This document shows, piece after piece, positions 1 through 26,646 of a stretch of 64,000 bases of DNA. Origin of the DNA: an uncultured Chloroflexia bacterium. Its GTDB lineage: Bacteria; Chloroflexota; Limnocylindria; Limnocylindrales; CSP1-4. Positions within the stretch are counted from its first letter, which is position 1; each line of letters opens with the position of its first letter. The stretch covers positions 167,012-231,011 of the forward strand of contig CAWBHP010000013.1 in assembly GCA_963788685.1 (NCBI GenBank). Direction: 5' to 3'. The translations under genes and the position numbers were made by a program. The notes beneath the pieces were generated by a model. The model was not told the origin of the DNA and did not search any database. It saw only the letters and a program-made list of their open reading frames with translations.

Positions 1-184
1 CCCAGGCGCATCGCCGGATCGTGGGTCCCGCGGAGGTGTGGCGCGAGGGTCAGGCGGAGGTCAAGGGGACGGTCGAGCGGGATCGTCCGAGCGGGCACCG
101 GCCCAGTCTGTCACGTGGTTGCGAGATTCGCACGAAAGGGTCGCATCCGCCCAAATTCTCGTTCCCTGCTAAGGTTTCCTTGAC

Positions 185-10944: not shown

Positions 10945-12856
10945 TCAGCCGGCGCCGGCGGCCACCGGCAGCTTCTCGATGCGGATCGCCGTGGCCTTGA
11001 ATTCGGCGGTGCCGGACTTCGGGTCGGTCGCGTCGATCGTCAGGAGGTTCGTCGCGACCTCGTCCTGGAAGTGGAGCGTCATGAACGTCAGGCCCGGTCG
11101 GAGCGACGGGTCGATCCGGATCGGCGTCTCGACCTGGCCGCGCCGGGAGATCACGCTGACCCGCTCGCCTTCGGTCAGGCCGAGCCGCTCGGCGTCCTCG
11201 GGGCTGATGTCGAGCGACTCGCCCCGCCGCAGCGGCGAGGTGTAGCCGCCGGTCTGGACGCCGGTGTTGTACGAGTCGAGCCGGCGGCCCGTCGTCAGCC
11301 GGATCGGGAAGTCGTCGTCGAGCTTGTCGACCGGCGGGTCGTGGTCGACCGCGACGAACGGCACCCGATTGCCCGGGACCGGGTCCTCCCAGAGCCGGCT
11401 GTGGAGGAACAGCTCGCCCGGGTGGTCCTCGTCGTAGCACGGCCACTGGAGCCCGCCGAGCTCCTCGAGGCGCTTGTAGGACATGCCGGCGTGGACCGGC
11501 GACAGCGCTCGGACCTCGTTCCAGGTGTCCTCGGCGGTCTGCCAGCCGAACTCCTGGCCCATCCGTCGAGCGAGCTCGGCGATGATCCACAGGTCGTCGC
11601 GGGCCTCGCCGGGCGGGTCGAGGGCCTTGCGGACGCGCTGGACGCGGCGCTCGGAGTTGGTGACCGTGCCCTCTGCCTCGGCCCAGGCGGCGGACGCGGG
11701 CAGGACGACGTCGGCGAGCTCGGCGGTCGCGGTCAGGAAGAGGTCCTGGACGACCATGAAGTCGAGGCCCTCGAGGAGGCGTCGGGCGCGAGCCTGGTCG
11801 GCCTCCGACTGGAGCGGGTTCTCGCCGATGACGTACACGGCCGTCAGGTCGCCGCGCTCCATCGCGTCGAACATGCCCGACAGGTGCCAGCCGCGCTTCG
11901 GCGGCACGGTGACGCCCCAGTGCTTGTCGAATTTCGCCCGGAGCTCGTCGTTCTCGACGTGCTGGAAACCGGGCAGCCGATCCGGGAGGGCGCCCATGTC
12001 GCCGCCGCCCTGGACGTTGTTCTGGCCACGGAGCGGGTTGACGCCGCTCCCGTAGCGACCGACATGGCCGGTGAGCAGGACGAGGTCGATCAGGGCGAGC
12101 ACGTTGTCGACGGCGTTGTGGTGCTCGGTGATGCCGAGGGTCCAGCAGATCATCGCCTTGGGAGCGGTCGCGAAGGCGTGGGCGAGCTCGCGGATCGCGT
12201 CGGCTGGGACGCCCGTCTCGCGCTCGGCGTAGTCGAGGGTGTAGCTCTCGACCTTCGCCTTGTAGGCGTCGAAGCCGTCGGTCGCGCGGTCGATGAACTC
12301 CTTGTTCTCGAGCCCCGCGGCGATGATCTCGCGGCCGATCGCGTTGGCGAGGGCAATGTCGCTGCCGACGTCGAGGCCCATCCAGACGTCGGCCCATTCG
12401 GCCGACGACGTTCGGCGCGGGTCGATCGCGTAGAGCCGGGCGCCCTTGCGGACGCCGCGGAGGAGGTGATGGAAGAAGATCGGGTGCGTCTCGCGGGCGT
12501 TGCTGCCCCACAGGACGATCAGGTCCGTCTCTTCGGCCTCACGGTATGAACTTGTGCCGCCACCGGCACCGAACACGGTCGCCAGACCGGCGACGCTTGG
12601 GGCGTGTCAGGTGCGGTTGCAGCTGTCGATGTTGTTGCTGCCCAGCACGGCCCGGCTGAACTTCTGCGCCGCGAAATTGACCTCGTTGGTCGCCTTCGAG
12701 CACGAGAAGACGCCGAAGGTCGTGGGCCCGTGGGCGGCCTTCGCCGCCTGGAAGCTGGCCACGACCTTGTCGAGTGCCTCGTCCCAGCTCGCGGGGCGCA
12801 GCGTCGGCGCCCTTCGAGTCGCGAACGAGTGGCTGGGTCAGTCGAACGTAGTTCAT
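10945..12856 (-). CDS. fdhA: formate dehydrogenase alpha subunit, molybdopterin (bis-MGD) catalytic portion. It is a selenoprotein with an in-frame UGA at 12607..12609, lacks the N-terminal Fe-S domains, and has a frameshift at about 12808.
   Basis: RLTQPLVRDSKG...SWDEALDKV...SCSKATNEVNFAAQKFSRAVLGSNNIDSCNRT-U-HAPSVAGL matches the E. coli FdhF region around Sec140. GVNPLRGQNNVQGGGDMGALPD is also present. Confidence 0.85.
12578..12594 (-). promoter_or_regulatory. SECIS-like hairpin (GUCGCC-GGUCU-GGCGAC) starting 11 nt 3' of the UGA
   Basis: It is a perfect 6-bp stem with a GGUCU apical loop, at the same position and with the same loop as the E. coli fdhF SECIS. Confidence 0.5.
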
Positions 12857-13004
12857 CGGCACGGGTGTGCCTCCTGCGGAACGACGACATACAGAGTCTA
12901 ACGCGAGGGCTGTCGTGCCTGGTGCGCCATCGCGGCGTTGCCACCTGCGCGGTTTCGAAGGGCCTAGACTCCCGATCTGCACCGAAAGCGATGGGAGGGT
13001 TCGC

Positions 13005-13428
13005 GTGGATACACCTCAGAAGCGACGCTGGATCGGGCTGATCGTCATCGTCATCGTCGCCGGCGTCGCCGCGGCCTGCGCGGGCGCACAGCGCAAGCCC
13101 CTCGGCCTCGGCCGCAGCGGTGAGCCCCGCGGCCCCATCCGCGGCGACCGGCTCGGACGTCGCTCGCACGCTCGACGGGCCGGCCGAGGCCAAGGCCGGA
13201 TCGGCGATCGTCGTGACGTGGACCGGCGAGGTCCGGAACGGCGACTACGTGACCATCGTGCCAAGCGGCGGTTCGTACAAGGCAGATGACCCGTACGTGA
13301 ACATCTACGACACCACGTCCGCCACGCTCAAGGCACCTGCGGCGGCAGGGGAGTACGAGATCTGGTGGATCGAGGGCGACACGATCGACGTAGTCCTGGC
13401 TCGTCATCCGATAACGATCACGCCATAG
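13005..13428 (+). CDS. small putative lipoprotein or secreted protein; frameshift at about 13085
   Basis: A GTG start gives VDTPQKRRWIGLIVIVIVAGVAAACAG (lipobox-like), then ...SDVARTLDGPAEAKAGSAIVVTWTGEVRNGDYVTIVPSGG... follows in the +1 frame. Confidence 0.4.
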
Positions 13429-13561
13429 CGTTTCGCCGGTAGCGTTCGGATAGCGTTCCGCTGGCGCGCTGCTGTCGATCGGGAGGGCCTGGCCCCAACT
13501 CGCGGCCGCTGGCGGTGGCGTCGAGACCCCGCAGGGGGCGGTAGTGGGCGAACGCGAACCG

Positions 13562-14500
13562 TCACATCGCCGAAACGCGCCTCGGGCTGATGATCCGCGC
13601 CACAGCGGCTACGGCATCGTCGAGGGTCTCGGGCAACCGAGTGGCTCCGATCGCATCGGATATGTCATCGGCCAACGGACCGCCGACGGCGCAGATCAGC
13701 GGCCTGGATGTTGTCCGAAGGGCCTCGGCGACGACCGCAGCCTCGGCGACGTCGGAGTCTGTGACGACCGCCACGACCGCCACGGGTGCGCCGGTCTCGC
13801 GGACGGTACGCAGCCAGCTGTCGAGCGGCACGTTGGCGCCCAGGTAGAGCACGTCGAGCCCGATGCGCCTGGCGGCGACCGCGAAGGCAAAGGCGCCGAT
13901 CTCATGTTGACCCGCCGGCGGCAGCCCGACGATCACCTTCGGGATCCGATCACTGCGCCCGGCAGCGTCGAAGAATCGCGCGAGCCTGCGCCGGACCGTT
14001 TCGCTGGCGGCGTGCTCGACGGCGACGTCGATCTCGCCAGCCGACCACGCGTCGCCGATGCCTCGCAGCGCCGGGAACACGATGTCGTCCATCGCGGACT
14101 CGAAGCGCTGGGCGGCGAAAGACTCGTCGAGGATCTGCTCCATGGCCGGCACATCGAACTGATGGGCCGCCACGAGGAACGCATCGACCGCGAGCTCAGC
14201 CGATCGCGACGACGCGCCGCGATCGTCCGAGACCGGAGCCGCGCCCGGCGCGACATCCCACCCACCCACGGCAGCGTCTGCCCCCACCGCGAGCACGTGC
14301 TCGGCGGCCTGGCTCGGGCGCCAGCCCTCGTTCTCCACAAGACGGCGCATCGCCATCAGCCGTCCAATGGATTCGTCGTCGTACAGGCGATAGCCAGCCG
14401 CGGTCCGGCTCGGCCGAACGACCCCGTAGCGACGCTCCCAGACGCGAACCGTTGGGATGGTGAGGCCGGCTCGTGCGGCCGCTTCCTTGATCGTGTACAT
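13562..14500 (-). CDS. CarH/LitR-type light-responsive MerR-family regulator with a B12 (AdoCbl)-binding domain
   Basis: The MerR helix-turn-helix is MYTIKEAAARAGLTIPTVRVWERRYGVV. The Wx9EH motif is AWSAGEIDVAVEH. The Rossmann-like B12 domain has GQHEIG...SWL...VGGP. Confidence 0.8.
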   Translation of the reverse strand: MYTIKEAAARAGLTIPTVRVWERRYGVVRPSRTAAGYRLYDDESIGRLMAMRRLVENEGWRPSQAAEHVLAVGADAAVGGWDVAPGAAPVSDDRGASSRSAELAVDAFLVAAHQFDVPAMEQILDESFAAQRFESAMDDIVFPALRGIGDAWSAGEIDVAVEHAASETVRRRLARFFDAAGRSDRIPKVIVGLPPAGQHEIGAFAFAVAARRIGLDVLYLGANVPLDSWLRTVRETGAPVAVVAVVTDSDVAEAAVVAEALRTTSRPLICAVGGPLADDISDAIGATRLPETLDDAVAAVARIISPRRVSAM

Positions 14501-14557
14501 CGCGGCGCTACGTTGCGTGGAGCGACGTGATGGCCCAGATGGGCCGGCCTGGGCGCG

Positions 14558-15388
14558 TCACGGTCGCAGCGTCCCGGCGAACACCTGCCATGCAAGCAGC
14601 GTCTTCGCGATGAGGCTGAGCACCATGTACGCCCGTTCACCGAAGACGTAGTCGCGCCATCGTCCGATTCGGCGGTACTGGAGGACCATGTTGATCGCGA
14701 AGACATTGAATGAGATGAACAGCGAGATGTAGATCGCGATCACAAAGCCCGGAATGGGGGCCGCGCCTGGCGCGGTGATCCCGGTCACCAGCGCGACCCC
14801 GATGACGATCCACGGCACGGCGCCGGCGACGCAGCCGAACACGTAGTGGAGCCACTGGACCCGTTGTCGTCCCTCATTCGCGATCTCCATGCTCCATCCG
14901 AACAGGATCATCACCGCATTCACGCCGAAGATCGCAATGAGCGTCCCGATCTCGCGGATGCCGGTCAGGCTGGCGATGACCACGATCATGACGCTCGACG
15001 AGAACGCGTACTCGATCCACCGCGCCGGATTCTGACCGCGCGCCAGGTTTCGTTCGTACCAGGCGCGGAACGGGACCGCGACCGAGAGATGGGCGAGGGC
15101 GCTAAGCAGAAAGAAGAGCGCGACCGCCGGTCCGATCGGCAGGTCGAAGAGCGGCTGCTGGGCCTCGATGAGAGTCCGAGTTGAGGGCTCGAACCTCAGA
15201 TAGCTGCTGACGACTGGGGAGCTGACGACCGGATCCTTCGCAACGCTCAGCGCCAGCATTGCCAGGAACTGGGTGCCGTGCAGGGCCGCGAGCGCCAGGT
15301 TCCATCGGGACAGGAGCGCGCCACGCCCGCTGTCGATCGGGACTGGCAGGGGGATAGGCGCCGTGATCGCGGACATCGGTATCTCCAT
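14558..15388 (-). CDS. heliorhodopsin
   Basis: RWIEYAFSSSVMIVVIASLTGI..IAIFGVNAVMILFGW and GERAYMVLSLIAKTLLAWQVFAGTLRP are near-identical to heliorhodopsin 48C12 motifs, including the retinal-binding lysine in SLIAK. Confidence 0.88.
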   Translation of the reverse strand: MEIPMSAITAPIPLPVPIDSGRGALLSRWNLALAALHGTQFLAMLALSVAKDPVVSSPVVSSYLRFEPSTRTLIEAQQPLFDLPIGPAVALFFLLSALAHLSVAVPFRAWYERNLARGQNPARWIEYAFSSSVMIVVIASLTGIREIGTLIAIFGVNAVMILFGWSMEIANEGRQRVQWLHYVFGCVAGAVPWIVIGVALVTGITAPGAAPIPGFVIAIYISLFISFNVFAINMVLQYRRIGRWRDYVFGERAYMVLSLIAKTLLAWQVFAGTLRP

Positions 15389-15409
15389 GGGCCGATTGCG
15401 AGATTCGTC

Positions 15410-15463
15410 TGTTCATGGTTTGTCGAATATATCACGGGCCAAAGATTTGACAAACCATGAACA
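15410..15463. promoter_or_regulatory. perfect 15-bp inverted repeat (TGTTCATGGTTTGTC, 24-nt spacer, GACAAACCATGAACA) in the AT-rich divergent promoter; candidate operator
   Basis: The repeat is read directly from the sequence. It lies between the heliorhodopsin start and the DUF4397 gene start. Confidence 0.5.
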
Positions 15464-15558
15464 TCGCTGCTACCTTAGGCCAACCCTCATCAAAGGGTGA
15501 ACAACAACAGGCGTCGAGGCAACAGTCCGGACGCCTCAATCCAGAAGGAGCCAGCACC

Positions 15559-16431
15559 GTGAACCGTCTTCTCGTTCGAGTCACCCGCGTCGTCGCCGGC
15601 GCCGCGTTGGTGCTCACCATCGCCGCCCCGGTGAGTGCGGCAGACACGGCACAGGTCCGTGTCCTGCATGCCTCGCCCGACGCACCGGCCGTCGACGTCT
15701 ATCTCGACGACACAATCGTCGACGCCCTGACGAACGTCCCGTTCGGGACCAGTTCGGACTACCTCGCGATCCCCGCCGGGGACCACAACGTGAAGGTCTA
15801 CGCCACCGGCACGACGAGCGCGCCCGTCATTGACGCGGACGTCACCGTCGCGACCGGCAAGAAGTACACGATCGCCGCCACCAACGCGGTTGCCGCGATC
15901 GAGGCCCAAGTGCTCGAGGACACCCCGGCGCCGGACTGCGATACCGCCCAGGTGCGGGTCGTCCACTTCAGTGCCGACGCTCCCGCGATCGACGTCGCCC
16001 CGGCCGGCGCCGCGCCCGCCGATGCGGTCGTCAAGAACCTCGCCTACCCGAACGCGTCTGACTACCTGGCACTGCCGGGTGGCACGTACGACCTCGAGGT
16101 TCGGCTGGCCGGAACGACGACGGTCGCGCTGGCCCTGCCGGGCGTCGCGATCGAGGACTGCAACGCCTACAGCGTGTTCGCGATCGGCTCCGCGGCCGGG
16201 ACCCCGGTCGGCGGAAAGGCCCTCCAGGTCGTCGCGGCCCTCGACGGCGCGGCCGAGGCCGGGCCGAAGCCGGGGCGGGGCGACCCCGCCCGCGACCGAC
16301 ACCGCCGTTTCGGGCTCAGGCCCGTCGGCGCTCAGTGCCGGTTCCGTGATCGGGTTCGTCGTCGTGGCCGTCGCCGCCATCGGCACCGTCCTTGCCCTCT
16401 CGTTCCGGCGCGCCGGGCACCGAGGGCCTAG
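15559..16431 (+). CDS. DUF4397 repeat protein with a signal peptide and a C-terminal transmembrane anchor; frameshift at about 16280, end uncertain
   Basis: The GTG start is preceded by GAAGGAG. The repeats are VRVLHASPDAPAVDVYLDD.. and VRVVHFSADAPAIDV. The anchor VIGFVVVAVAAIGTVLALSF is in the +1 frame. Confidence 0.55.
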   Translation: MNRLLVRVTRVVAGAALVLTIAAPVSAADTAQVRVLHASPDAPAVDVYLDDTIVDALTNVPFGTSSDYLAIPAGDHNVKVYATGTTSAPVIDADVTVATGKKYTIAATNAVAAIEAQVLEDTPAPDCDTAQVRVVHFSADAPAIDVAPAGAAPADAVVKNLAYPNASDYLALPGGTYDLEVRLAGTTTVALALPGVAIEDCNAYSVFAIGSAAGTPVGGKALQVVAALDGAAEAGPKPGRGDPARDRHRRFGLRPVGAQCRFRDRVRRRGRRRHRHRPCPLVPARRAPRA

Positions 16432-16643
16432 GGGACTCCCGTACTCGACCTTCCCAGCGCGAGCCGGTCGCCCCTCCGGCCGGCTCTCGCCTCCTCGGGA
16501 AGGCGACGGGTCTGGCGGTCGAGCGACCTCGCACGCTCGTCGACGAGCTGCTCGAGCTGGCGGTCGTCCCCAGCTTCTCCCGGATCGGGCCGGCCGTCCG
16601 CCGGCGGCTGTTCGGTTGGGCGGCCCGCCGCCCGAGGCTGCGC

Positions 16644-17536
16644 ATGCCGGGCGGACCGTCCTGATCACCGGGCCGACGTCCGGGCTGGGCCGCGCGGCCG
16701 CCGGCGGCTCGCCGGGCTCGGCGCGCGGGTCGTCCTCGTCGGCCGCGAGCGAGGCCGGTTGGCCGCGGTCCGCGACGAGCTCGTCGCGGCCACGGCGAGG
16801 ACCGCTTCCCGATCGTCGTGGCCGACATGGCGTCGCTCGCCTCGGTCCGGGCGGCCGTGACGCGGATCCTGGACGACCGAGCCGCGGCTCGACGTGGTCA
16901 TCGACAACGCGGGCGCGATCCTCCCGAAGCGAACCGAGGGACCCGACGGGATCGAAGCGACGTTCGCGACGATGGTCGTCGGCCCGTTCGTCCTGGTCTC
17001 CGGCCTGCTGCCGCTGCTCCGTCGGAGCGGCGGCGCCCGGGTCATCGCGGTGACATCGGGCGGGCAGTACGCCCAGCGGCTCGACCTCGACGACTTGCAG
17101 CTCGCCGGCGGGCCGTTCGACGGGACGCGTGCGTACGCCAGGTCGAAGCGCGCCCAGGTCGGCCTCGTCCGTGAGTGGGCTCGGCGGCTCGGGAGGTCCG
17201 GAGTCACGCTTCGCATCGATGCATCCCGGTTGGGCCGACACGCCCGGACTCGCGGAGGCCCTGCCGGCCTTCCACGACCTCATGCGTCCGCTGCTCCGAA
17301 CGCCCGACCAGGGCGTAGACACGCTCGTCTGGCTCGCCGCCTCAACCACGAGCCACGGGGCGAATGGCCGCCTGTACCTCGATCGTCGGCCGCGCCCGTT
17401 CGACCGAGTCCCTGCCACGCGGCTCTCCGCGACTGATCGGCGGCGCCTCTGGGACAGCGTCGTCGCCCTCAGCGGGGCGCCCGACCCGGCCCCCGACCCG
17501 GACCTCATCCCAACCAGTGACCGGAGATCGACATGA
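16644..17536 (+). CDS. short-chain dehydrogenase/reductase (SDR) family oxidoreductase; about four frameshifts; possible N-terminal extension
   Basis: Motifs include TVLITGPTSGLGRAAA, VIDNAGAILP, YARSKRAQV and MHPGWADTPGL. The stop overlaps the next ATG (ATGA). Confidence 0.6.
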
Positions 17537-17994
17537 CCACGCTCACGAACGGATCGAGACACCCTGCCCATCGACGAGGCGTTCGCCTACGTCGCCGACT
17601 TCGCCAACTCCCAGGAGTGGGACCCGGGCGTCGCCACCGCCGAACGGCTCGACCAGGGCCCGGTCGGCGTCGGGTGCGCGCTACCGGCTCGGCGTCCGGA
17701 TGGGCGGCCGGGTCGCCCCGATGGAGTACCGGATCCCGGTCTTCGAGCCGCCGACGCGGGTCGTCCTGCCGGTGCCGGGTCCGGCGTGACGGCGGTCGAC
17801 GACATCCGCTTCGAGCGCCCGGCGACGCGGGACGCGCGTCGACTACACCGCCGACATCAAGCTCGGCGGCCTCCTCGGCCTCGTCCAGCCGTTCCTCGGC
17901 GGCGCCTTCGCGCAAGCTCGGCCGGAACGCGGCCGACGGCATGCAGCGGACGCTGCGACGGCGCGCGCGGCCGGCGACCGAGGCGGACGCGTCG
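17533..17994 (+). CDS. SRPBCC (polyketide cyclase/dehydrase-like) family protein; several frameshifts
   Basis: Motifs include ETLPIDEAFAYVADFANSQEWDPGVATAERL, RYRLGVRMGGRVAPMEYRIPVFEPPTRVVL and DIKLGGLLGLVQPFLGGAF. Confidence 0.5.
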
Positions 17995-19274
17995 ATGAAG
18001 GTCGCCATCGTCGGGGCCGGCGTCAGCGGCCTGACCGCCGCGTACGCGCTGACGCGAGCCACGAGATCCGCCTGTTCGACGCGGAGCCGTCGTCGGGCGG
18101 CCACGTCAAGACGGTCGCGGTGGAGACGGCGCCGGGCCGGTCGCGGTCGACACGGGCTTCATCGTCTACAACGAGCACACCTACCCGACGTTCATCCGGC
18201 TGCTCGCCGAGCTCGGCGTCGCGACCCAGCCGAGCGACATGTCGCTCGGGTCGGCCTGCCGGGCCTGCGGCGTCGAGTTCAGCTCGCGCGGCATCGGCGG
18301 CTACTTCGCCCAGCCGACGCGCCGTCGCTCGCCCGGGCCAGTGGCGGATGATCGCCGACATCCTGCGGTTCTACCGCGAGGCCCGAGCGACGCTCGACGC
18401 ACCGGCGCCCTCGACCGGGACGCTGGGCGACTTCCTCGACGACGGCGGCTATCGGCGCGGGCTTCCGCGACCACTTCCTCGTCCCGATCACGTCCGCCGT
18501 GTGGTCGACGGGCGCGGCCCGGATCCTCGACTTCCCGATCGACTACCTGCTCCGGTTCCTGGACCACCACGGCCTCATCGGCTACGGCAACGCGCCTCCA
18601 GTGGCGGACGATCCAGGGCGGCTCGATGCGCTACGTGGACCGGATCGTCGCAGCGCCTGCCGCCTGGCACGATCCGAGCCGGCAGCCCGGTCGTCGACGT
18701 CGTCGCGCCGCGTGGCGGGCGTCACGGTCCGGACCGAGGACGGCACGCCGGAGCGCGTTCGACGCGGTGGTCATGGCCACGCATGCCGACCAGGCCCTGG
18801 CCGTCCTCCACGACGCCGACGGCTGCGAACATGCCGCGCTGGGCGGCTTCGACTACTCGACCAACCAGGTCGTCCTCCACACGGACGAGCGCGTCCTGCC
18901 ACGCCGACTCGGCGCGCCGCGCGTCGTGGAACGTGGACCAGGAGGATTGCCGCGCGGCCGGGCGAGGCGCTCACGATGACGTACCACATGAACCGGCTGC
19001 AGTCGCTGGCCGGCCCGATCGCAGTACTCCGTGTCGGTCAACCCCGGCGACCGCGTCCGACCCGACCGGGTCATCGTGGAGCGAGCCATGAGCCATCCGA
19101 TGTACACGTTCCGGACGCTCGAGGCGCAGGCGGCCCTGCGCGGCCTGCAGGGCTGGCGTCGGCACGTAGTTCGCCGGGGCGCACCTCGGCTACGGCTTCC
19201 ACGAGGACGGCTGCCGGTCCGGGTTGGAGGTCGCCGACCTCGATCCGGCCGCGGCCGCGGAGCGAGCCGCATGA
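17995..19274 (+). CDS. FAD/NAD(P)-binding amine-oxidase-like oxidoreductase (UfaD-like desaturase); many frameshifts
   Basis: Motifs include [77 protein letters not shown] and [14 protein letters not shown]. Confidence 0.6.
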
Positions 19275-20020
19275 GGTCGCACCTGCTGGAGGGCATCGTC
19301 CGCCACCGGCGCGTCCGGCCGTTCACGTACGCGCTGGAGCACGGCGTGTTCTACGTCGCGCTCGACCTCGACGAGCTCGACGAGGTGCCGCGGCGGCTTC
19401 GGTTCGTCAGCCGGAACCGCCGGAACCTGCTGTCGTTCCGCGACGACGATCACCTGGTCCCGCCGGCCGCGCGACGTGCGCGCGTCGGTCCTGCGAACAG
19501 CTGCGGGCCGAGGGCGTGGATCCCGACGGCTGGCAGGTCACGCTGGTCACGAACCTCCGGTGCCTCGGCTACGTGTTCAACCCGGCCAGCTTCTTCCTCT
19601 GCCGCGATCGCGCCGGCGAGCTGCGGGTCGTCATCGTCGAGGTCCACAACACGCACGGCGAGCGGCACCTGTACACGCTCCGCGCGCGGACGACGGCGGC
19701 CGGCGGCTTCGTCGACTCGATGGACAAGGCGTTCTACGTCTCGCCGTTCATCGAGATGGCCGGGCGCTACACGGTCCGGGTCCGCGACGAGCCGGCCGCG
19801 TCTGCGGATCACGATCAACGAAGCCCAGGACGGACGGCCTCCTGCTGCACACGAGCCTCGACCTGACCCGCCGACGCCTGTCCGACCGGATGGTCGCTGC
19901 GGATGCTCCTGCGCCACCCGCTGGTCAGCCACAGGACGATCGGGCATGATCCACTGGCACGCCCTGCGGCTGTGGCTGCGCGGGGCCCGATTCCACCGCC
20001 ATGGGGAGGCGACACGATGA
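19271..20020 (+). CDS. DUF1365 family protein (UfaO-like); several frameshifts
   Basis: Motifs include [78 protein letters not shown] and [12 protein letters not shown]. Confidence 0.6.
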
Positions 20021-21283
20021 CCACGCCGACGACGTCCAGCCGCTCGCGCCGCGCGCTCGGCCGATCCCGATCCTGCTCGCCGGCTCGCGCTGGCGCATCG
20101 CGACCGGCGGCGGCGGACGCGATCGCGGTCGGGCACCTCGCGGTCGTCCTGCCGGACGGCAGCCGCCGGACGTTCGGCGATCGCGGCCGCCGACCGGCCG
20201 CGCCGAGATCCACATCCACGACACGCGAGCGCTGACCCGGCTCCTGTCGACGGCGAGACCGGTGGCGGCGAGGCCTACATGGACGGCCTGTGGTCCAGCC
20301 CGGACCTCGCCGGCCTCCTGCGCTGGGCCGCCCTCAACCGCGAGGCGCTGGCGCTGTCGGCCGGCTGGTTCCGGGCGCCGGCCCAGCTCCGGCGGACGAT
20401 CGCCCACCGCGCTCCGACGGAACACGAAGGGCCAGAGCCGCCGGAACATCGCGGCCCACTACGACCTCGGGCAACGACTTCTACCGGCCGTTCCTCGACG
20501 AGACGATGACCTACTCGAGCGCGGTGTTCGCCTCGCCCGACCAGTCGCTCGCGGACGCCCAGCGCAACAAGTACCGGCGCATGGCCGACGGCGCCGGCCT
20601 GCGTCGCCGGCCAGCACGTCCTCGAGATCGGGACCGGCTGGGGCGGGTTCGCCCTCTACGCGGCGGGCGAGCTCGGCTGCCGCGTGACGTCGGTCACGAT
20701 CTCGCAGGAGCAGCACGCCCTGGCCCGCGAGCGGGTCCGCGCGGCCGGGCTGGAGCGACCGGGTCGACATCCAGCTGCGCGACTACCGCGACATCGACGG
20801 GCACGTACGACGCGATCGTCTCGATCGAGATGCTCGAGGCGGTCGGCGCCGAGTACTTCGCGACGTTCTTCGAGGTCTGCGATCGCGGCGCTCGTGCCGG
20901 GCGGCCGGCTGAGCCTCCAGTCATCACGTTCCCCGATGCCGCCTACGAGCGCCAGCTCCGCGGCGCGAACTGGATCCAGACGTACATCTTCCCGGGCGGC
21001 CTGTGCCCGTCGCTGGCCGTCATCGAGCGGGCGACCGCGCGACACGCGGCTGCTCGTCACGCGACGTCACCGACATCGCCGCCGGACTACGTCCGGACGC
21101 TGCGTGCGTGGCGGACGCGGTTCATGGAGCCGGCTCGGCGACGGTGCGCGCGATGGGCTTCGACGACCGCTTCATCCGGATGTGGGAGTACTACCTCGCG
21201 CTGAGCGAGGCGGGCTTCGCGACCGGGATCAGCCAGGACCTCCAGATCGTGCTTCGAGAAGCGCCGCGGCAATCGCTGGTTAG
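20017..21283 (+). CDS. cyclopropane-fatty-acyl-phospholipid synthase family SAM-dependent methyltransferase (UfaM-like); many frameshifts; 3' end approximate
   Basis: Motifs include [108 protein letters not shown] and [22 protein letters not shown]. Confidence 0.65.
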
Positions 21284-21339
21284 TTCCAGCATCGGTCGCC
21301 GGCGAGCCTTCTCGGCGGACTCTGGCGGCCTTCGCCCCC

Positions 21340-22026
21340 TCAGCCGGTATCTAGCGGCGTCCGGACGTCGCGGCGGGCCTTGCGGACGATGCGGACGAAG
21401 CTGCGGAGATGGGCCAGCGGCCGGATGTGCGCGGCTCGCCGGCATAGATCGTCCGGATCGGGACCCAGGCGATCGGCCGCCCGTCCCGGATGCAGGTCGT
21501 GATCATCTCGACCTCGAACTCGAAGCCGCCCTCGTCGCTGGCAGCGTCGCCTCCATGAGCCGCCGACCGAGGAGCCGGTAGCCCGACTGGTTGTCCGGGA
21601 TCGGCTGGCCGACCGCCCACGAGAACGCCCTGCCGCCGAGCACGTTCGAGAGCCGCCGGACCGGCGGCATCGCCCGGAAGTTGCGCCGGCCGATGACGAG
21701 GTCGGGCCGCGGCTCGGCCGCCCAGGCCGCGAGGAAGCGGGGATCTCCGCGGGATCGTGCTGGCCGTCGGCGTCGAGCGTCAGTGACCGCGTCGGCGCCG
21801 TCGGCCAGGGCGCGTCGGAACCCGGCCCGCAGCGCCGCGCCCTTGCCCTGGTTCGGGCGCTGCTCGATGACGGTCGCCCCGGCCGCCCGGGCCCGCGCGG
21901 CGGTGTCGTCGCCGAGCCGTCGTCGACGACGAGGACCGGCAGGTGGGCGGCGGCGCCCCGAACGACCTCGCCGATCCGCGGCCCCTCGTTGTAGCCCGGG
22001 ATCAGCGCGACGATCACGCCAGGCCG
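21340..22026 (-). CDS. family 2 glycosyltransferase (dolichyl-phosphate-mannose-synthase-like); frameshifts
   Basis: Motifs include VIVALIPGYNEGPRIGEVV..LVVDDGS, DADGQHDPAEIP and GFEFEVEMITTCIRDGRPIAWVPIRTIYAGE. Confidence 0.55.
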   Translation of the reverse strand, partial: RPGVIVALIPGYNEGPRIGEVVRGAAAHLPVLVVDDGSATTPPRGPGRPGRPSSSSARTRARARRCGPGSDAPWPTAPTRSLTLDADGQHDPAEIPASSRPGRPSRGPTSSSAGATSGRCRRSGGSRTCSAAGRSRGRSASRSRTTSRATGSSVGGSWRRRCQRRGRLRVRGRDDHDLHPGRAADRLGPDPDDLCRRAAHIRPLAHLRSFVRIVRKARRDVRTPLDTG

Positions 22027-22029
22027 ACG

Positions 22030-23074
22030 CCGGCGCCCTCCTCGACGCGGCCGACGCGCCAGGCTCGACGCCGGCAGCTCGAGCGCCGCCTCGACGGCCG
22101 CCAGCCGCTCGGCCGGGATCGCGGCCAGCAGCCCGCCGGACGTCTGGGGGTCGTGGGCGAGGGTCACGAGCTCGGCGGCGACGCCGTCGGCCGCGTGCAG
22201 CGCGGGATGGACGAACCGCCGGTTGTGCGCCGCGCCGCCGGTCTCGACGCCAGCTCGGGCGAGATCGAGCGCGCCGGGGAGCGCCGGCAAGGTCGCGGCG
22301 TCGAACACGAACCGCGTGCCCGATGCGCGGGCCATCTCGAGGCCGTGCCCCAGCAGCCCGAAGCCGGTCACGTCGGTCGCGCCGGCGATTCCGTTGGCGA
22401 CGAGGATCTCGGACGCCGCCCGGTTGAGCGTGCGCATCTGGTCGATGGCGCCGGCCGAAGTCGGCCTCGGTCGCCTTGCCCTGCCGGTGGCCGCTGACGA
22501 GCAGGCCCGTTCCGAGCCGCTTCGTGAGCAGCAGCACGTCGCCCGGCCGCGCGCCGCCCTTGCGCAGCAGCCGGTCCGGATGGCCCGCCCCGATGACCGC
22601 CAGCCCGTATTTCGGCTCCGCGTCGCGGATCGTGTGGCCACCGGCGAGCGTGCCGCCGGCCTCGCGGACCTTCGACGCGGCGCCCTCGAACACGGCCGCG
22701 AGCGTGTCCCGCGGCAGGTCCTCGGGAAAGGCCGCGATCGACAGCGCGAAGAGGACGCGGCCGCCCATCGCGAAGACGTCGCTCAGCGCGTTCGCCGCCG
22801 CGATCTCGCCGAATGTCCGCGGCGTCGTCGACGAGCGGCGGAAAGAAGTCGAGCGTGCCGATGATCGCGAGGTCGTCCGAGACCCGGTAGGCAGCCGCGT
22901 CGTCGGGCGGCGTCAGGCCGGCGATGAGCTCGTCCGGCGCGGCCGGCCGCCGGGCCCGACACCGAGCCCGGAGAGCGCGTCGGCCAGCAGGTCGGCCCCG
23001 AGCTTCGCCGCGCAGCCGCCGCAATCGGTCAGTTCGGTCAGGCGGATCGGCGGCAGCGTCTCAAGAGCACCCAT
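22030..23074 (-). CDS. selD: selenide, water dikinase (selenophosphate synthetase) SelD, Cys-type; about three frameshifts; 3' end approximate
   Basis: Motifs include [80 protein letters not shown] and [10 protein letters not shown]. Confidence 0.75.
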
Positions 23075-23289
23075 CGAGCGGATGATAGGCGCGGCGTCCC
23101 TGAAACGACGCCCAGCAGCCACTGCGTTCGTCGCACTCAACTGCGTTCGTCGCGGATGGGCGTCGAGGGCGAGGCGCCCGGCGAGGACCGGAGCGAGCGC
23201 ACCCAAGGTGCGTGAGCGAGGACCGCTGCCGGGCAACGCCGCCATCGGCGTCCAGGCGCGACAGCCGTTCCCCGCAAGTAAGATTTGGT

Positions 23290-23386
23290 GGGAGCGGTCG
23301 GGTCCCGGTGGGCCCCCTGGTCTTCAAAACCAGTGGCGCAGCGCCAGGCGCGGCGCAGTGGGTTCGACTCCCATGCGCTCCCGCCA
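23290..23386 (+). tRNA. selC: tRNA-Sec (anticodon UCA)
   Basis: The anticodon arm is CUGGU-CUUCAAA-ACCAG. The D-arm has a 6-bp stem with a 4-nt loop (GGGUCC-CGGU-GGGCCC). There is a long variable arm, a T-arm GUGGG-UUCGACU-CCCAU, and a 3' GCCA. The acceptor stem has 7 pairs plus one G:G mismatch. Confidence 0.8.
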
Positions 23387-23395
23387 GGAGGATCG

Positions 23396-24774
23396 ATGTC
23401 GACCGAGACCCGTCCCCACCCGCCGAGCGTCGAGCGCCGTCGCGGCCGCGAGCCGGACGCGGCTGGGGGAGGGCCGCAGTCCTGAAGCGATCGTCGACGT
23501 CGCGCGCGCGGTCGTCGCCGAGGAGCGGGACCGACTCGCGGCCGGCGCCGAGCCGCGCACCGTCGACGCGCTCGCCGACGAGGTGGCCGCCCGGCTCGAC
23601 CGCCTCGGCGAGCCGGCGATTCACCGCGACGATCAACGCGACGGGCGTCATCGTCCACACGAACCTCGGGCGCGCGCCGTGGCCGCACGCGGCGATCCAG
23701 GCCGCGGAGGCGGCCGCGCGCGACTATCTCCTTCTCGAGCTCGACCGCGATTCCGGACGCCGCGGGCGCGCGCTTCCGGGCGGCCGAGGAGCACCTCGTC
23801 GCCCTGACCGGGGCCGAGGACGCGCTCGTGACGAACAACAACGCGGCGGCGGTCGCGCTGGCCGTCGGCCTCGCCGGGCGGGGTGGCGGTGTCGTCGTCG
23901 GCCGCGGGCGAGCTGGTCGAGATCGGCGGCGGCGTCCGGATTCCCGAGATCATCCGGCGGGCCGGGGCGAAGCTGATCGAGGTCGGGACGACGAACCGGA
24001 CCCGCGCCGAGGACTTCGAGCCGCCGCTCGCCGAAGGCCGGGCGCGGGTCGTCCTCCGGGTCCATCCCTCGAACTTCCGCCAGACGGGCTTCACGGAGGC
24101 GCCAGATCCCGCGGCGCTTGGCCGACGCTCGCTCACGGCCACGGCGCGATCGTCGTCGACGATCTCGGCTCCGGCGCGCTCCTGCCGACGGAGCGCTACG
24201 GCCTCGCCCACGAGCCGATGCCCGCGCGAGCGCCTGGCCGCCGGCGCCGACATCGTGACGTTCAGCGGCGACAAGCTCGTCGGCGGCCCCCAGGCCGGTC
24301 TCGTCGTCGGCCGCGCCGACCTCATCGCCCGGATCCGGCGCGACCCGCTGGCGCGGGCGATGCGGCCCGACAAGGTGACGCTCGCGGCGATGGCCGCGAC
24401 GCTCGGCCTCTACCGCGCCGGCCGGCGCCGAGGCGGAGATCCCCGTCTGGCGGATGATCGCCGCGGCGCCGGACGCCCTCCGCGAGCGTGCCGAAGCGCT
24501 CGCCAAGCGGCTCGCGGGCGCGGTCGAGGTCGTGTCGACCGAGGCGACGGTCGGCGGCGGTTCGCTGCCGGGCGAGACGCTGCCATCGTTCGGCCTGGCG
24601 CTGCGTGGCGGGTCGGCCGATCGGACGCTTGCCGCCCTGCGGCGGGGGAGCCCGGCAGTCGTCGGCCGGATCGAGGGCGGTCGGGTCATCCTCGACCTGC
24701 GGACGGTCGATCCCGGGCGCGACGCGGAACTGGAAGCGGCGATCAGCGCAGCCGTGGCGCCGCCGAGCCGTCAT
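23396..24774 (+). CDS. selA: L-seryl-tRNA(Sec) selenium transferase SelA; many frameshifts
   Basis: Motifs include [67 protein letters not shown] and VGGGSLPGE. The stop overlaps the selB ATG. Confidence 0.7.
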
Positions 24775-26646
24775 GACCGTCGTCGTCGGGACCGCGGGCC
24801 ACATCGACCACGGCAAGACGACGCTGCTCCGCGCGCTGACGGGGATCGATGCCGATCGTCTGCCCGAGGAGCGGCGGCGGGGGATGACGATCGACGTCGG
24901 CTACGCCCACCTCGATCTGCCGGACGGCACGCAGCTCGACTTCGTCGACGTCCCGGGGCACGACAAGCTCGTTGGAAACATGCTCGTCGGGGCGGGCGAG
25001 ATCGACGCCGCACTCCTCGTCGTCGCGGCCGACGACGGACCGCGGCCGCAGACGCTCGAGCACCTCGAGCTGCTCGACGCGCTCGGCATCGCCGATGGCC
25101 TGGCGGTCGTCACGAAGGCCGACGCCGTGGCACCGGAGCGGGCAACCGAAGTGGCCGCCGCCACGCGTGACCTGCTCGACCGAACGATCCTCGCCGGCGC
25201 CCCGGTCATCGTCGTCTCCGCGACCACAGGGGCGGGCCTCGACGAGCTCCGGACGGCGCTCGTCGCGCTCGTCGATCGCGTCCTCGCCCGGGGTCTGCCC
25301 GGCGGCCCCGCCCGGCTCGCGATCGACCGAGTCTTCAGCGTCAAGGGTCGCGGCACGGTCGTCACCGGGACGCTCCGCGGCGGCCCGATCGAGCGGGGAA
25401 TGACGCTGCGCCTGCTGCCCGGCGGGCGCGAGGCACGAGTCCGCGAGATCCAGGTCCACGGCGGGACCGTCGAACGGGTCGCCGCCGGCGGTCGAACCGC
25501 GCTCAACGTGGGCGGCGTCGAGGGCGGAGGACCTCCACCGCGGCATGGTCCTGGCCGGACCGCCAGCGGCCGACTGGACCGCCCCGCAGCCGCTGCGCGA
25601 CCGACCGGCTCCTCGTCGCCCTCCACCCGGTCGCGGACCTGGGCGGCGGGGTTCCGGGGATCCCGGCGGATCGGGCGCGGGTCCGGCTCCACACCGGGAC
25701 GGAGCAGGTCGGCGCGGTCGTCGGGCGGAGCGGCCGGGACACCGCCGAACTGCCGGGCGGCGAGGTCGCCGCGATCCTCCGGCTCGAGCGGCCCGTCGCC
25801 GTCGCCGCAGCGGATCGCTTCGTCCTTCGCCGGCCGTCGCCGGGCGGAACGCTGGCCGGCGGCCGGATCCTCGACGCGGTGCCACCGCGTGGCGTGTCGC
25901 GGCGCCGCACGACGCCCGAGCGCCTGGCCGCCCTCGCCGCGGCCGCGACGGGCGATGACGTGGCCTCCGCGCGACTCGACCTCCACGGCGCCATCGCCGG
26001 GAATCCCGTGCGGCTCGCGGACGATCTCGCGGCGGCGCTCCGGCTGGACATCCTCGCCGGCGTCGGCGCCTCCGGCGAGTGGCTGCCAATCGCCGACGTG
26101 CGGGCGCGCGGCGCATTGAGCCTTCGCCGCCTCGTCACGCTTTCGGCGGCGGACGCCCGTGCCGTCGCGTCGACCGTCGTTGAGGAGCTCGTCCGCGATG
26201 GCCGGTTGGCGGTGGATGGCGATCGAATCGCGGCGGCGGGCAGCGCGCCGGCGGGACCCCGGCCCGAGACGCTGGCCGCTATGGCTCGCCTCGAGTCGGC
26301 GCTCGACGTCCCTGCGCCGCCGCCGTTGTCGGAAGCCGCCCTCGCCGCAGCGTGCCCGTCCGATGGCATTCGGGCGCTGGAATCGGCCGGTCGGATCGTC
26401 CGCCTCGACGACGATCTGGCGTATGCCGCGGCTGCCTACCGCCGGCTCGAGGCGCGCGCCGTCGAGCTGGCCACGGCGTCCCCGCTCGCGCCTGCCGCCC
26501 TGCGCGACGCGACGGGAACGAGCCGCAAGTACGTCATGGCGATCCTCGAGGACCTGGATCGACGGGGAGTCCTGCGCCGAACGCCGGCCGGCCACGTGCC
26601 CGGTCCGCGCGCGGCCGCGGCCGCGGCCCCGACGACCCGGCCATGA
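24773..26646 (+). CDS. selB: selenocysteine-specific elongation factor SelB; frameshifts at about 25530-25600
   Basis: The G-domain is [24 protein letters not shown]...[10 protein letters not shown]-terminal winged-helix domains end [16 protein letters not shown]. Confidence 0.75.

Follow-up and report, generated by a model that had tools for sequence, protein, structure and literature searches.

A predicted light-responsive membrane-lipid operon related to the furan-fatty-acid genes, next to heliorhodopsin and a CarH-like regulator in an uncultured Chloroflexota bacterium

In Rhodopseudomonas palustris, the contiguous genes ufaD-ufaO-ufaM (RPA2571-RPA2570-RPA2569) are sufficient for the formation of the furan fatty acid 9M5-FuFA (Lemke et al. 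2020, PMC7380195). Of the encoded enzymes, UfaM adds a methyl group to cis-vaccenate carried by phospholipids; UfaD, an NAD/FAD-binding protein resembling phytoene desaturases, forms the 10,12-diene; and UfaO, a DUF1365 protein, inserts oxygen derived from O2 to give the furan ring (PMC7380195). Rhodobacter sphaeroides carries RSP1091-RSP1087 together with a ufaM gene located elsewhere (RSP2144), and the cyclopropane fatty acid (CFA) synthase-like gene RSP1089 found within its ufaD-ufaO operon is dispensable for furan fatty acids (PMC7380195). Two further systems bear on the regulation of the locus described here: that of CarH, tetramers of which recognize 11-bp direct repeats (nAnnTnnACAn) placed in tandem across the promoter (PMC8156234), and that of Pseudomonas, where regulators of the LitR/CarH family adjoin a light-inducible cluster comprising phrB, a short-chain dehydrogenase/reductase (SDR), a flavin adenine dinucleotide (FAD) oxidoreductase and ufaM (PMC9758184). 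The subject of this report is a set of putative lipid-modification genes located at about 16.5-21.3 kb of a 64,000-nt stretch (hereafter referred to as the window) of contig CAWBHP010000013.1 from an uncultured bacterium of the class Limnocylindria; the set lies next to genes for a CarH-like regulator and a heliorhodopsin.

On balance, we favor the reading that this locus is a functional membrane-lipid modification operon homologous to the furan-fatty-acid genes and probably derepressed by light, and that the numerous frameshifts found in it are assembly errors. The operon would comprise, in this order, genes for a DUF4397 protein, an SDR, an SRPBCC protein, a UfaD-like FAD desaturase, a UfaO-like DUF1365 protein and a UfaM-like S-adenosylmethionine (SAM)-dependent methylase. 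By analogy with Rhodobacter and Rhodopseudomonas, the methylase would transfer a methyl group to a phospholipid-borne monounsaturated acyl chain, the FAD enzyme would introduce a second, conjugated double bond, and the DUF1365 protein would close the furan ring with O2, yielding furan fatty acids or close relatives thereof that would act as membrane scavengers of singlet oxygen and radicals. Transcription would proceed from a rightward promoter that overlaps, back to back, that of the heliorhodopsin-carH unit, both promoters lying within an array of 11-bp T..ACA repeats of the type recognized by the tetramer of adenosylcobalamin (AdoCbl)-bound CarH. Without light, the CarH-like protein would keep both units repressed; upon illumination, photolysis of its B12 cofactor would break the tetramer and turn both units on. 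This prediction of a furan product and of control by light is based on homology, on the order of the genes and on the conservation of motifs.

A five-gene set related to ufaD, ufaO and ufaM

All five gene families predicted by the initial annotation of this DNA were recovered, on the + strand and in the order SDR, SRPBCC, FAD amine-oxidase-like enzyme, DUF1365 protein and CFA-synthase-like methylase [Table 1], both in the raw and in the frame-corrected sequence. The GC content of the window is about 72%, and the coding frame at the locus switches every 100-200 nt or so in a plot of GC content at third codon positions (GC3). The Pfam domains adh_short, Polyketide_cyc2, NAD_binding_8, DUF1365 and CMAS were already detected in the raw frame pieces, each of them spread over two to three frames. 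Intact orthologues from a related locus (L001, see below) were then threaded onto the window DNA using a frameshift-aware protein-to-DNA dynamic programme of our own; plain tblastn was unsuited to the location of frameshifts as its gapped high-scoring segment pairs continue through wrong frames. After frame correction, the five proteins matched Pfam adh_short (SDR, 9.7e-27), Polyketide_cyc2 (SRPBCC, 1.1e-14), Amino_oxidase together with NAD_binding_8 (FAD enzyme, 2.9e-18 for the former), PF07103 (DUF1365 protein, 1.1e-74, over model positions 1-234 of 235) and CMAS (methylase, 3.8e-80, over model positions 4-269 of 273), and were 66, 83, 89, 90 and 83% identical, respectively, to their L001 counterparts. 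The closest NCBIfam matches of the SDR, PRK06196 and PRK06197, were both below cutoff.

The proposed translational coupling through ATGA start/stop overlaps was likewise confirmed, the overlaps falling at 17533, 17995, 19271 and 20017; one extra correction is required for the SRPBCC frame to reach its ATGA stop. The bounds first assigned to the set (16644-21283) need correction: the SDR gene starts some 100-130 nt further upstream, near 16.5 kb, where a conserved N-terminal segment (RTLVDELLELAVVPSFSRIGPAVRRRLFGW) is encoded, and the end of the methylase gene is uncertain (21283-21354) owing to a late frameshift.

Table 1. Coordinates and properties of the predicted features of the locus (positions in the window)
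Feature	Position	Strand	Remarks
CarH/LitR-like regulator	13562..14500	-	Intact open reading frame (ORF), 312 aa; Pfam MerR_1, B12-binding_2, B12-binding
Heliorhodopsin	14558..15388	-	Intact ORF, 276 aa; Pfam Heliorhodopsin 7.4e-93, model positions 1-242 of 242; between operator and carH
Operator (CarH-type, predicted)	15410..15463		19-nt inverted repeat, arms 15410-15428 and 15445-15463
Leftward sigma-70-type promoter (heliorhodopsin-carH), predicted	15426..15453	-	TTGTCA, 16-nt spacer, TG-extended TATATT
Rightward promoter (lipid operon), predicted	15447..15476	+	TTGACA, 18-nt spacer, TACCTT; inside operator
Third direct-repeat pair, slightly degenerate	15487..15503	+	..CAAAGGGTGAACA; downstream of -10
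DUF4397 protein	15559..16431	+	Pfam DUF4397 7.4e-44; signal peptide and C-terminal membrane anchor; 3' part frameshifted
SDR oxidoreductase	16510..17536	+	6 frameshifts; start approximate; conserved N-terminal extension of ~65 aa
SRPBCC / Bet v1-like protein	17533..17998	+	~153 aa; 5 frameshifts and one implied at the C-terminus
FAD amine-oxidase-like enzyme (UfaD-like)	17995..19274	+	12 frameshifts; 423 aa in relatives
DUF1365 protein (UfaO-like)	19271..20020	+	246 aa; 6 frameshifts
CFA-synthase-family SAM methylase, two-domain (UfaM-like or RSP1089-like)	20017..21291	+	16 frameshifts; 418 aa in relatives

Scanning one genome per species returned 36 related loci, all of them from metagenome-assembled genomes (MAGs) labelled Chloroflexota and mostly belonging to the class Limnocylindria, the exception being a single 1.6-kb contig binned as Sphingomonadales. 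An actinobacterial source of the window, to which its high GC content had first pointed, is thereby rejected. The FAD-DUF1365-CMAS triad is present in 34 of these loci and is intact in short-read assemblies; in the operons of Illumina MAGs such as L001, L003 and L005, the three proteins are 423, 246 and 418 aa long, respectively. The SRPBCC protein of L001 is 153 aa in length, the short-read operons are ATGA-coupled, and L004 and L005 display the complete SDR-SRPBCC-FAD-DUF1365-CMAS order. Within the sequences examined, the operon is widespread and strongly conserved in Limnocylindria, a class of Chloroflexota from soil and fresh water that is abundant and uncultured and to which gene sets of the furan-fatty-acid type are hereby extended. 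Its wiring differs among lineages: the SDR gene is on the same strand and ATGA-coupled in the window and in L002-L007, L022, L028, L030 and L032, but on the strand opposite to the other four genes in about two-thirds of the loci (L001, L008-L021, L023-L025, L029, L031, L033, L034), the SDR segment having evidently been inverted during evolution. We note that the GC3-based gene caller was unreliable in lower-GC loci of the L008/L009 type.

The likeness of the FAD, DUF1365 and methylase genes to ufaD, ufaO and ufaM noted at the outset holds for both the protein families and their order, which is that of RPA2571-2570-2569 in R. palustris. More distant counterparts were found on alphaproteobacterial plasmids, a protein search of which returned 95 records with DUF1365 homologues. 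In those of Azospirillum thermophilum (NZ_CP029358) and Aminobacter niigataensis (NZ_CP132960), the FAD and DUF1365 genes are direct neighbors of those encoding a sigma factor and its ChrR anti-sigma-E partner, sigmaE-ChrR being a singlet-oxygen regulator pair; a CMAS-like gene accompanies them in the Azospirillum record only, and the gene order equals that of the window. The window proteins share 37-44% identity overall with those of the alphaproteobacterial clusters (FAD enzyme, 42% over its full length; DUF1365 protein, 37-42%; CMAS protein, about 41%), and the location of the DUF1365 gene directly 3' of a UfaD-type FAD gene is common to the 34 relatives and the plasmids. Judged by family membership and gene order, the set and the furan-fatty-acid system are homologous.

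The FAD enzyme has the NAD/FAD-binding amine-oxidase fold (Amino_oxidase and NAD_binding_8) expected of UfaD. Its best database relative is an intact protein of 423 aa (P0001; 91% identity) and its nearest solved structure, aligning over the full length (E 2.5e-35), is that of LkcE, a Streptomyces enzyme that serves as lankacidin amide oxidase/cyclase; other solved amine oxidases align to it only at the N-terminal dinucleotide-binding motif. On these alignments, it is not a generic amine oxidase. The CMAS domain of the methylase (residues 134-398) is preceded by an N-terminal region of about 130 aa, and among solved structures the enzyme is closest to the phospholipid CFA synthases 7QOS, 6BQC and 5Z9O. 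A sequence search of the PDB with the DUF1365 protein returned no match. Its structural model (predicted local distance difference test score, pLDDT, 82.7) is mainly beta in fold, with a pair of helices at the C-terminus, has no significant solved neighbor and weakly resembles fatty-acid-binding barrels; it fits an acyl-chain substrate, which is not proof of one. The residues of this protein kept between Limnocylindria and alphaproteobacteria include H12, DH (60-61), VFNP, E123-x-x-N-T-x-G-x-R-H132, YVSPF and IHW (224-225); they are candidate active-site residues for UfaO chemistry.

Several points weigh against a furan product. No model of UfaD, UfaO or UfaM was matched in NCBIfam, and the likeness to RSP1091, RSP1090, RSP2144 and RPA2569-2571 was judged through proxies and gene order rather than by direct alignment. 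The counterpart of the methylase may be RSP1089 of R. sphaeroides and not UfaM. As for the SDR and SRPBCC proteins, the furan pathway as published (PMC7380195) assigns them no role. The alphaproteobacterial clusters do carry an SDR, as well as small proteins of ligand-binding type (DUF3833, NTF2-like), but the window SDR is only about 28% identical to theirs. The operon might be real and light-regulated yet yield another modified lipid, such as methyl-branched, conjugated-diene or cyclopropane chains, or a product processed by the SDR and SRPBCC proteins. Such an outcome, which we hold to be possible though rather unlikely, would be in keeping with the breadth of the CMAS family, which covers cyclopropane synthases and methyl-alkene-forming enzymes alike and in which the best solved relatives of the methylase are cyclopropane synthases; with the presence in the R. 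sphaeroides ufaD-ufaO operon of a CFA-like gene unneeded for furan fatty acids; with the coupling of two genes from outside the published pathway; and with the different substrate of LkcE, an oxidase/cyclase. Furan ring formation, on the other hand, is the sole demonstrated function of a DUF1365 protein, the order of the triad equals that of the R. palustris genes, and there is no cyclopropane synthase equivalog in NCBIfam whose curated cutoff the methylase reaches (PRK11705, 255 of 400 bits; Brucella-type, 298 of 600; CfaB, 195 of 650).

Origin of the frameshifts

The initial annotation had found apparent frameshifts in every gene of the set. Their presence is not in doubt, with 45 counted relative to L001 over the five genes and no in-frame stop codon; what did not stand up is their being a biological property of the genes or a sign of decay. 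The indels consist of 47 one-nucleotide insertions and 12 one-nucleotide deletions with hardly anything longer, and 77% of the insertions lie outside homopolymers. Natural bacterial indels are deletion-biased, varied in length and associated with repeats. In a comparison with two relatives, the window has 40 private insertion columns as opposed to none in L001 and one in L037, whereas its private DNA substitutions (79) are fewer than those of either (147 and 121, respectively); its private amino-acid changes at positions where two outgroups agree are fewer than those of L001 (27 versus 44). In a gene that had drifted long enough to accumulate more than 40 indels, one would expect extra substitutions in the hundreds, and stop codons as well; the relaxed selection expected of pseudogenes, in the form of excess substitutions, stops and deletions, is not apparent here.

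The damage extends beyond the lipid genes. The unrelated downstream genes selD, selA and selB are split across frames as well, and a GC3 hidden Markov model placed candidate frameshifts in patches over the window (4-6, 8-10, 16-26 and 62-64 kb). Illumina MAGs of the clade are essentially devoid of frameshifts, whereas several long-read MAGs show similar patches (e.g., 10 frameshifts in the FAD gene and six in the DUF1365 gene of L033, and eight in L034). From the excess of insertions without an excess of substitutions, the spectrum of the indels, the absence of stops, the involvement of unrelated genes and the restriction to long-read MAGs, we infer that the frameshifts are single-base insertion errors of sequencing or assembly and that the organism itself carries intact genes; the case is an inferential but strong one.

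That the cluster should instead consist of decayed pseudogenes, the frameshifts being true mutations, is in our opinion very improbable. This explanation would account for the concentration of 45 frameshifts within 4.85 kb when the adjoining carH and heliorhodopsin genes and most of the DUF4397 gene have none, and an independent assembly from the same strain, with which it could be confronted, was sought and none was found; the closest sequences are 88-89% identical in DNA, and P0001/L037, at 88.5%, stems from a different strain. It is at odds with the window branch having fewer substitutions, in protein and DNA, than its intact relatives; with the lack of any in-frame stop; with a 4:1 bias towards insertions, nearly all of 1 nt and chiefly outside homopolymers; with the sel genes being broken too; and with the occurrence of comparable patches in other long-read MAGs and not in Illumina MAGs. 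One aspect that the explanation by error leaves without a cause, and that counts against it, is the patchy placement of the errors. Between the dense patches at 8-10, 16-26 and 62-64 kb lie stretches several kb long that are free of such errors, and L033 and L034 are alike in this respect. Frameshift density follows local GC content (rho 0.73), a correlation that we do not interpret since detection power also climbs with GC. More generally, dense frameshifts in long-read MAGs can mimic pseudogenization, and indel spectra combined with relative-rate tests separate the two without recourse to the reads.

Promoter region, CarH-like regulator and heliorhodopsin

The palindrome half-site that was to be looked for upstream of 16644 is absent from that position. 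A search of this region and of the whole window revealed only the two arms of an inverted repeat located further upstream, ahead of the DUF4397 gene [Table 1]. Each arm contains two 11-bp direct repeats (T..ACA.....T..ACA). This motif occurs twice in the window, in the two arms, and 61 times in the 36 related loci, giving 63 occurrences in a total of 635 kb where 1.35 would be expected (an enrichment of about 45-fold), and all matches but one are located at these promoters. The repeats are in tandem and overlap a -35 element and spacer, as befits a predicted CarH operator. The leftward promoter matches 10 of 12 positions and was the sole match of the promoter scan in 13300-21700 (8.4 kb); the rightward one shares its -35 region. 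In an alignment of 13 loci (A1), in which this promoter/operator architecture is conserved, the TTGACA element is invariant, is oriented towards the lipid genes and precedes by 17-19 nt (usually 18) a TAnnnT hexamer that was identified by eye, the alignment marking only one nearly invariant column there. The third repeat pair aligns with a conserved ACAAAGGGTGGACA of the relatives and completes a bidirectional region that spans 15410-15503 in the window.

The first gene downstream of the rightward promoter is that of the DUF4397 protein, the GTG start of which agrees with L028; DUF4397 genes occupy the equivalent position in L007, L020, L023, L028, L030 and L032. Because no operator was found upstream of 16644 and no terminator-like site between the DUF4397 and SDR genes, the transcription unit is likely to run from the DUF4397 gene to the methylase gene, with heliorhodopsin-carH forming a divergent unit under the same operator. 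In L024, L033 and L034, the motif is immediately flanked by the SDR gene on one side and the SRPBCC gene on the other, with no carH nearby.

The CarH-like protein has the expected layout, namely a MerR DNA-binding domain followed by a B12-binding four-helix bundle and Rossmann subdomain, and its best solved relatives are Thermus thermophilus CarH/LitR (5C8D, 3WHP; E ~1e-30). Aligned to T. thermophilus CarH (TtCarH), it retains the Wx9EH motif as defined for CarH (PMC8156234) in the form WSAGEIDVAVEH. With regard to the B12 motif ExHx2G...SxV/T...GG and to the CarH signature GxxW, EH, GxxH, GxxxP (PMC11796333), the His, Gly, GG, GxxW (GDAW), EH and GxxxP (GANVP) elements are present, PPAGQHEIG is found where TtCarH has PPGERHEIG, and AVV replaces SxV. 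A CarH-like gene adjoins the cluster in 22 of the 36 loci. Heliorhodopsin is encoded within 10 kb of it in seven loci and in three different positions: within the carH unit (the window and L028), beside the SDR gene (L025) or 3' of the methylase gene (L009, L010, L012, L018 and L029). The adjacency of photoreceptor genes pointed out in the initial annotation thus proved to be conserved synteny accompanied by a conserved CarH-type motif, rather than a one-off. Very probably, the lipid gene cluster belongs to a light regulon of the B12/CarH type, of which heliorhodopsin is a member too.

This assignment has its weaker sides. The rightward -10 element, TACCTT, is weak and falls below the threshold of the promoter scan; many relatives have an inverted SDR gene between the operator and the remaining genes, which complicates a model based on one promoter; the regulator has AGQH where CarH has GxxH/ExH; and its top NCBIfam match, TransRegCarH, reaches 143 bits against a cutoff of 400. 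One may ask, then, whether the lipid genes escape control by the CarH-like protein and by light, their adjacency reflecting shared ancestry of the locus and the repeats being common promoter elements or serving a different regulator. The absence of a nearby CarH-like gene from roughly a third of the loci would be compatible with this view, as would the variable SDR orientation, which in several loci places an inverted SDR gene between the motif and the FAD-DUF1365-CMAS genes, the agreement of the motif with the CarH consensus at the T and ACA positions only, and an operator role deduced from a sequence motif to which binding is predicted. Yet the strongly enriched motif is confined to these promoters and overlaps the -35 and spacer, the place of CarH operators (PMC8156234); L024, L033 and L034 have kept the motif although carH is not nearby, and heliorhodopsin has joined the cluster in three different arrangements. 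Altogether, we deem independence from the CarH-like protein unlikely. Under the favored reading of a shared, light-responsive operator, the locus provides a defined operator sequence with which the light switch can be tested.

Heliorhodopsins modulate glutamine synthetase and an ABC transporter. Heliorhodopsin, which is joined to the CarH-linked lipid cluster in three independent arrangements, might be a working part of the light response, acting as a membrane light sensor that modulates the lipid enzymes directly, while the SDR and SRPBCC proteins may supply reductant or lipid handling for UfaO; we offer this as a speculation of low probability. Heliorhodopsin gene neighborhoods have been linked to oxidative-stress genes in a study in which no mention of B12 or cyclopropane was found and which refers to fatty acids only in passing (PMC8612252). 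The present synteny provides a testable genomic link for heliorhodopsin function, namely the photo-oxidative protection of the membrane. The CarH-like and heliorhodopsin proteins of the window are 100% identical to those of L028 (CAWHSS010000003.1), but the overall DNA identity between L028 and the window is 89%, for which reason L028 was rejected as the source contig. The segment 13300-16100 (carH-heliorhodopsin-operator-DUF4397) is about 99.6% identical between the two as opposed to 80-92% for its flanks, lipid genes included; it is free of frameshifts and has a GC content of 66-68% versus 72-75%. The segment may stem from a photoreceptor cassette that was recently exchanged between species, or else from chimerism introduced during assembly or binning.

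The light and photo-oxidative-stress island envisaged in the initial annotation is upheld with respect to the photoreceptor link, but its extent is limited to about 13.5-21.3 kb, with a molybdopterin oxidoreductase gene and a selenocysteine gene set on either side. The former (10948-12576, - strand) may encode a selenoprotein formate dehydrogenase. The latter (21343-26643) consists of selD on the - strand (AIRS and AIRS_C over two frames), tRNA-Sec (23288-23386), selA and selB. Positions 12532-13560 and 1-2705 were called non-coding by the GC3 model, and three ORFs in 12522-13407 had no Pfam match.

Comparison with described systems

With the Ufa systems of R. palustris and R. sphaeroides, the locus shares an FAD desaturase-like enzyme, a DUF1365 protein of about 250 aa and a CFA-family methylase of about 400 aa in one order, the presence of accessory genes (an SDR-sized gene and a small gene) and a photo-oxidative-stress context. 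It differs from them in that they belong to Proteobacteria with sigmaE-ChrR whereas the window, from a Chloroflexota, has a B12-type CarH-like repressor, and in the addition of an SRPBCC protein, a DUF4397 protein and another SDR subfamily, all five genes of the set being ATGA-coupled. Extra genes are thus coupled to the core set. The alphaproteobacterial plasmid clusters differ in a similar manner, with an extracytoplasmic function (ECF) sigma factor and ChrR for regulators and with accessory DUF3833, NTF2-like, major facilitator superfamily (MFS) and other SDR genes.

As to T. thermophilus CarH, the common features are the MerR domain, four-helix bundle and Rossmann B12 domain, the Wx9EH, GxxW and GxxxP motifs and His ligand, and 11-bp repeats with T and ACA that overlap the promoter. 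The predicted operator of the window is organized differently, in two inverted pairs and one downstream pair, and its regulator has AxxH for GxxH/ExH. T. thermophilus CarH targets carotenoid genes; the prediction here is that of a B12/CarH light switch acting instead on membrane-lipid-modifying enzymes and heliorhodopsin. Finally, the class II LitR cluster of Pseudomonas, which is light-induced, resembles the locus in having a MerR regulator beside an SDR, an FAD oxidoreductase and a UfaM-type methylase. The Pseudomonas regulators, however, lack the B12 Rossmann subdomain and have LOV partners, whereas the window regulator has both B12 subdomains and Wx9EH, as in class I; the window cluster, moreover, has no photolyase and does have a heliorhodopsin. 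The predicted regulation of the locus is thus unlike that of the described systems, a class I CarH-like repressor standing in the place of sigmaE-ChrR or of a class II LitR.

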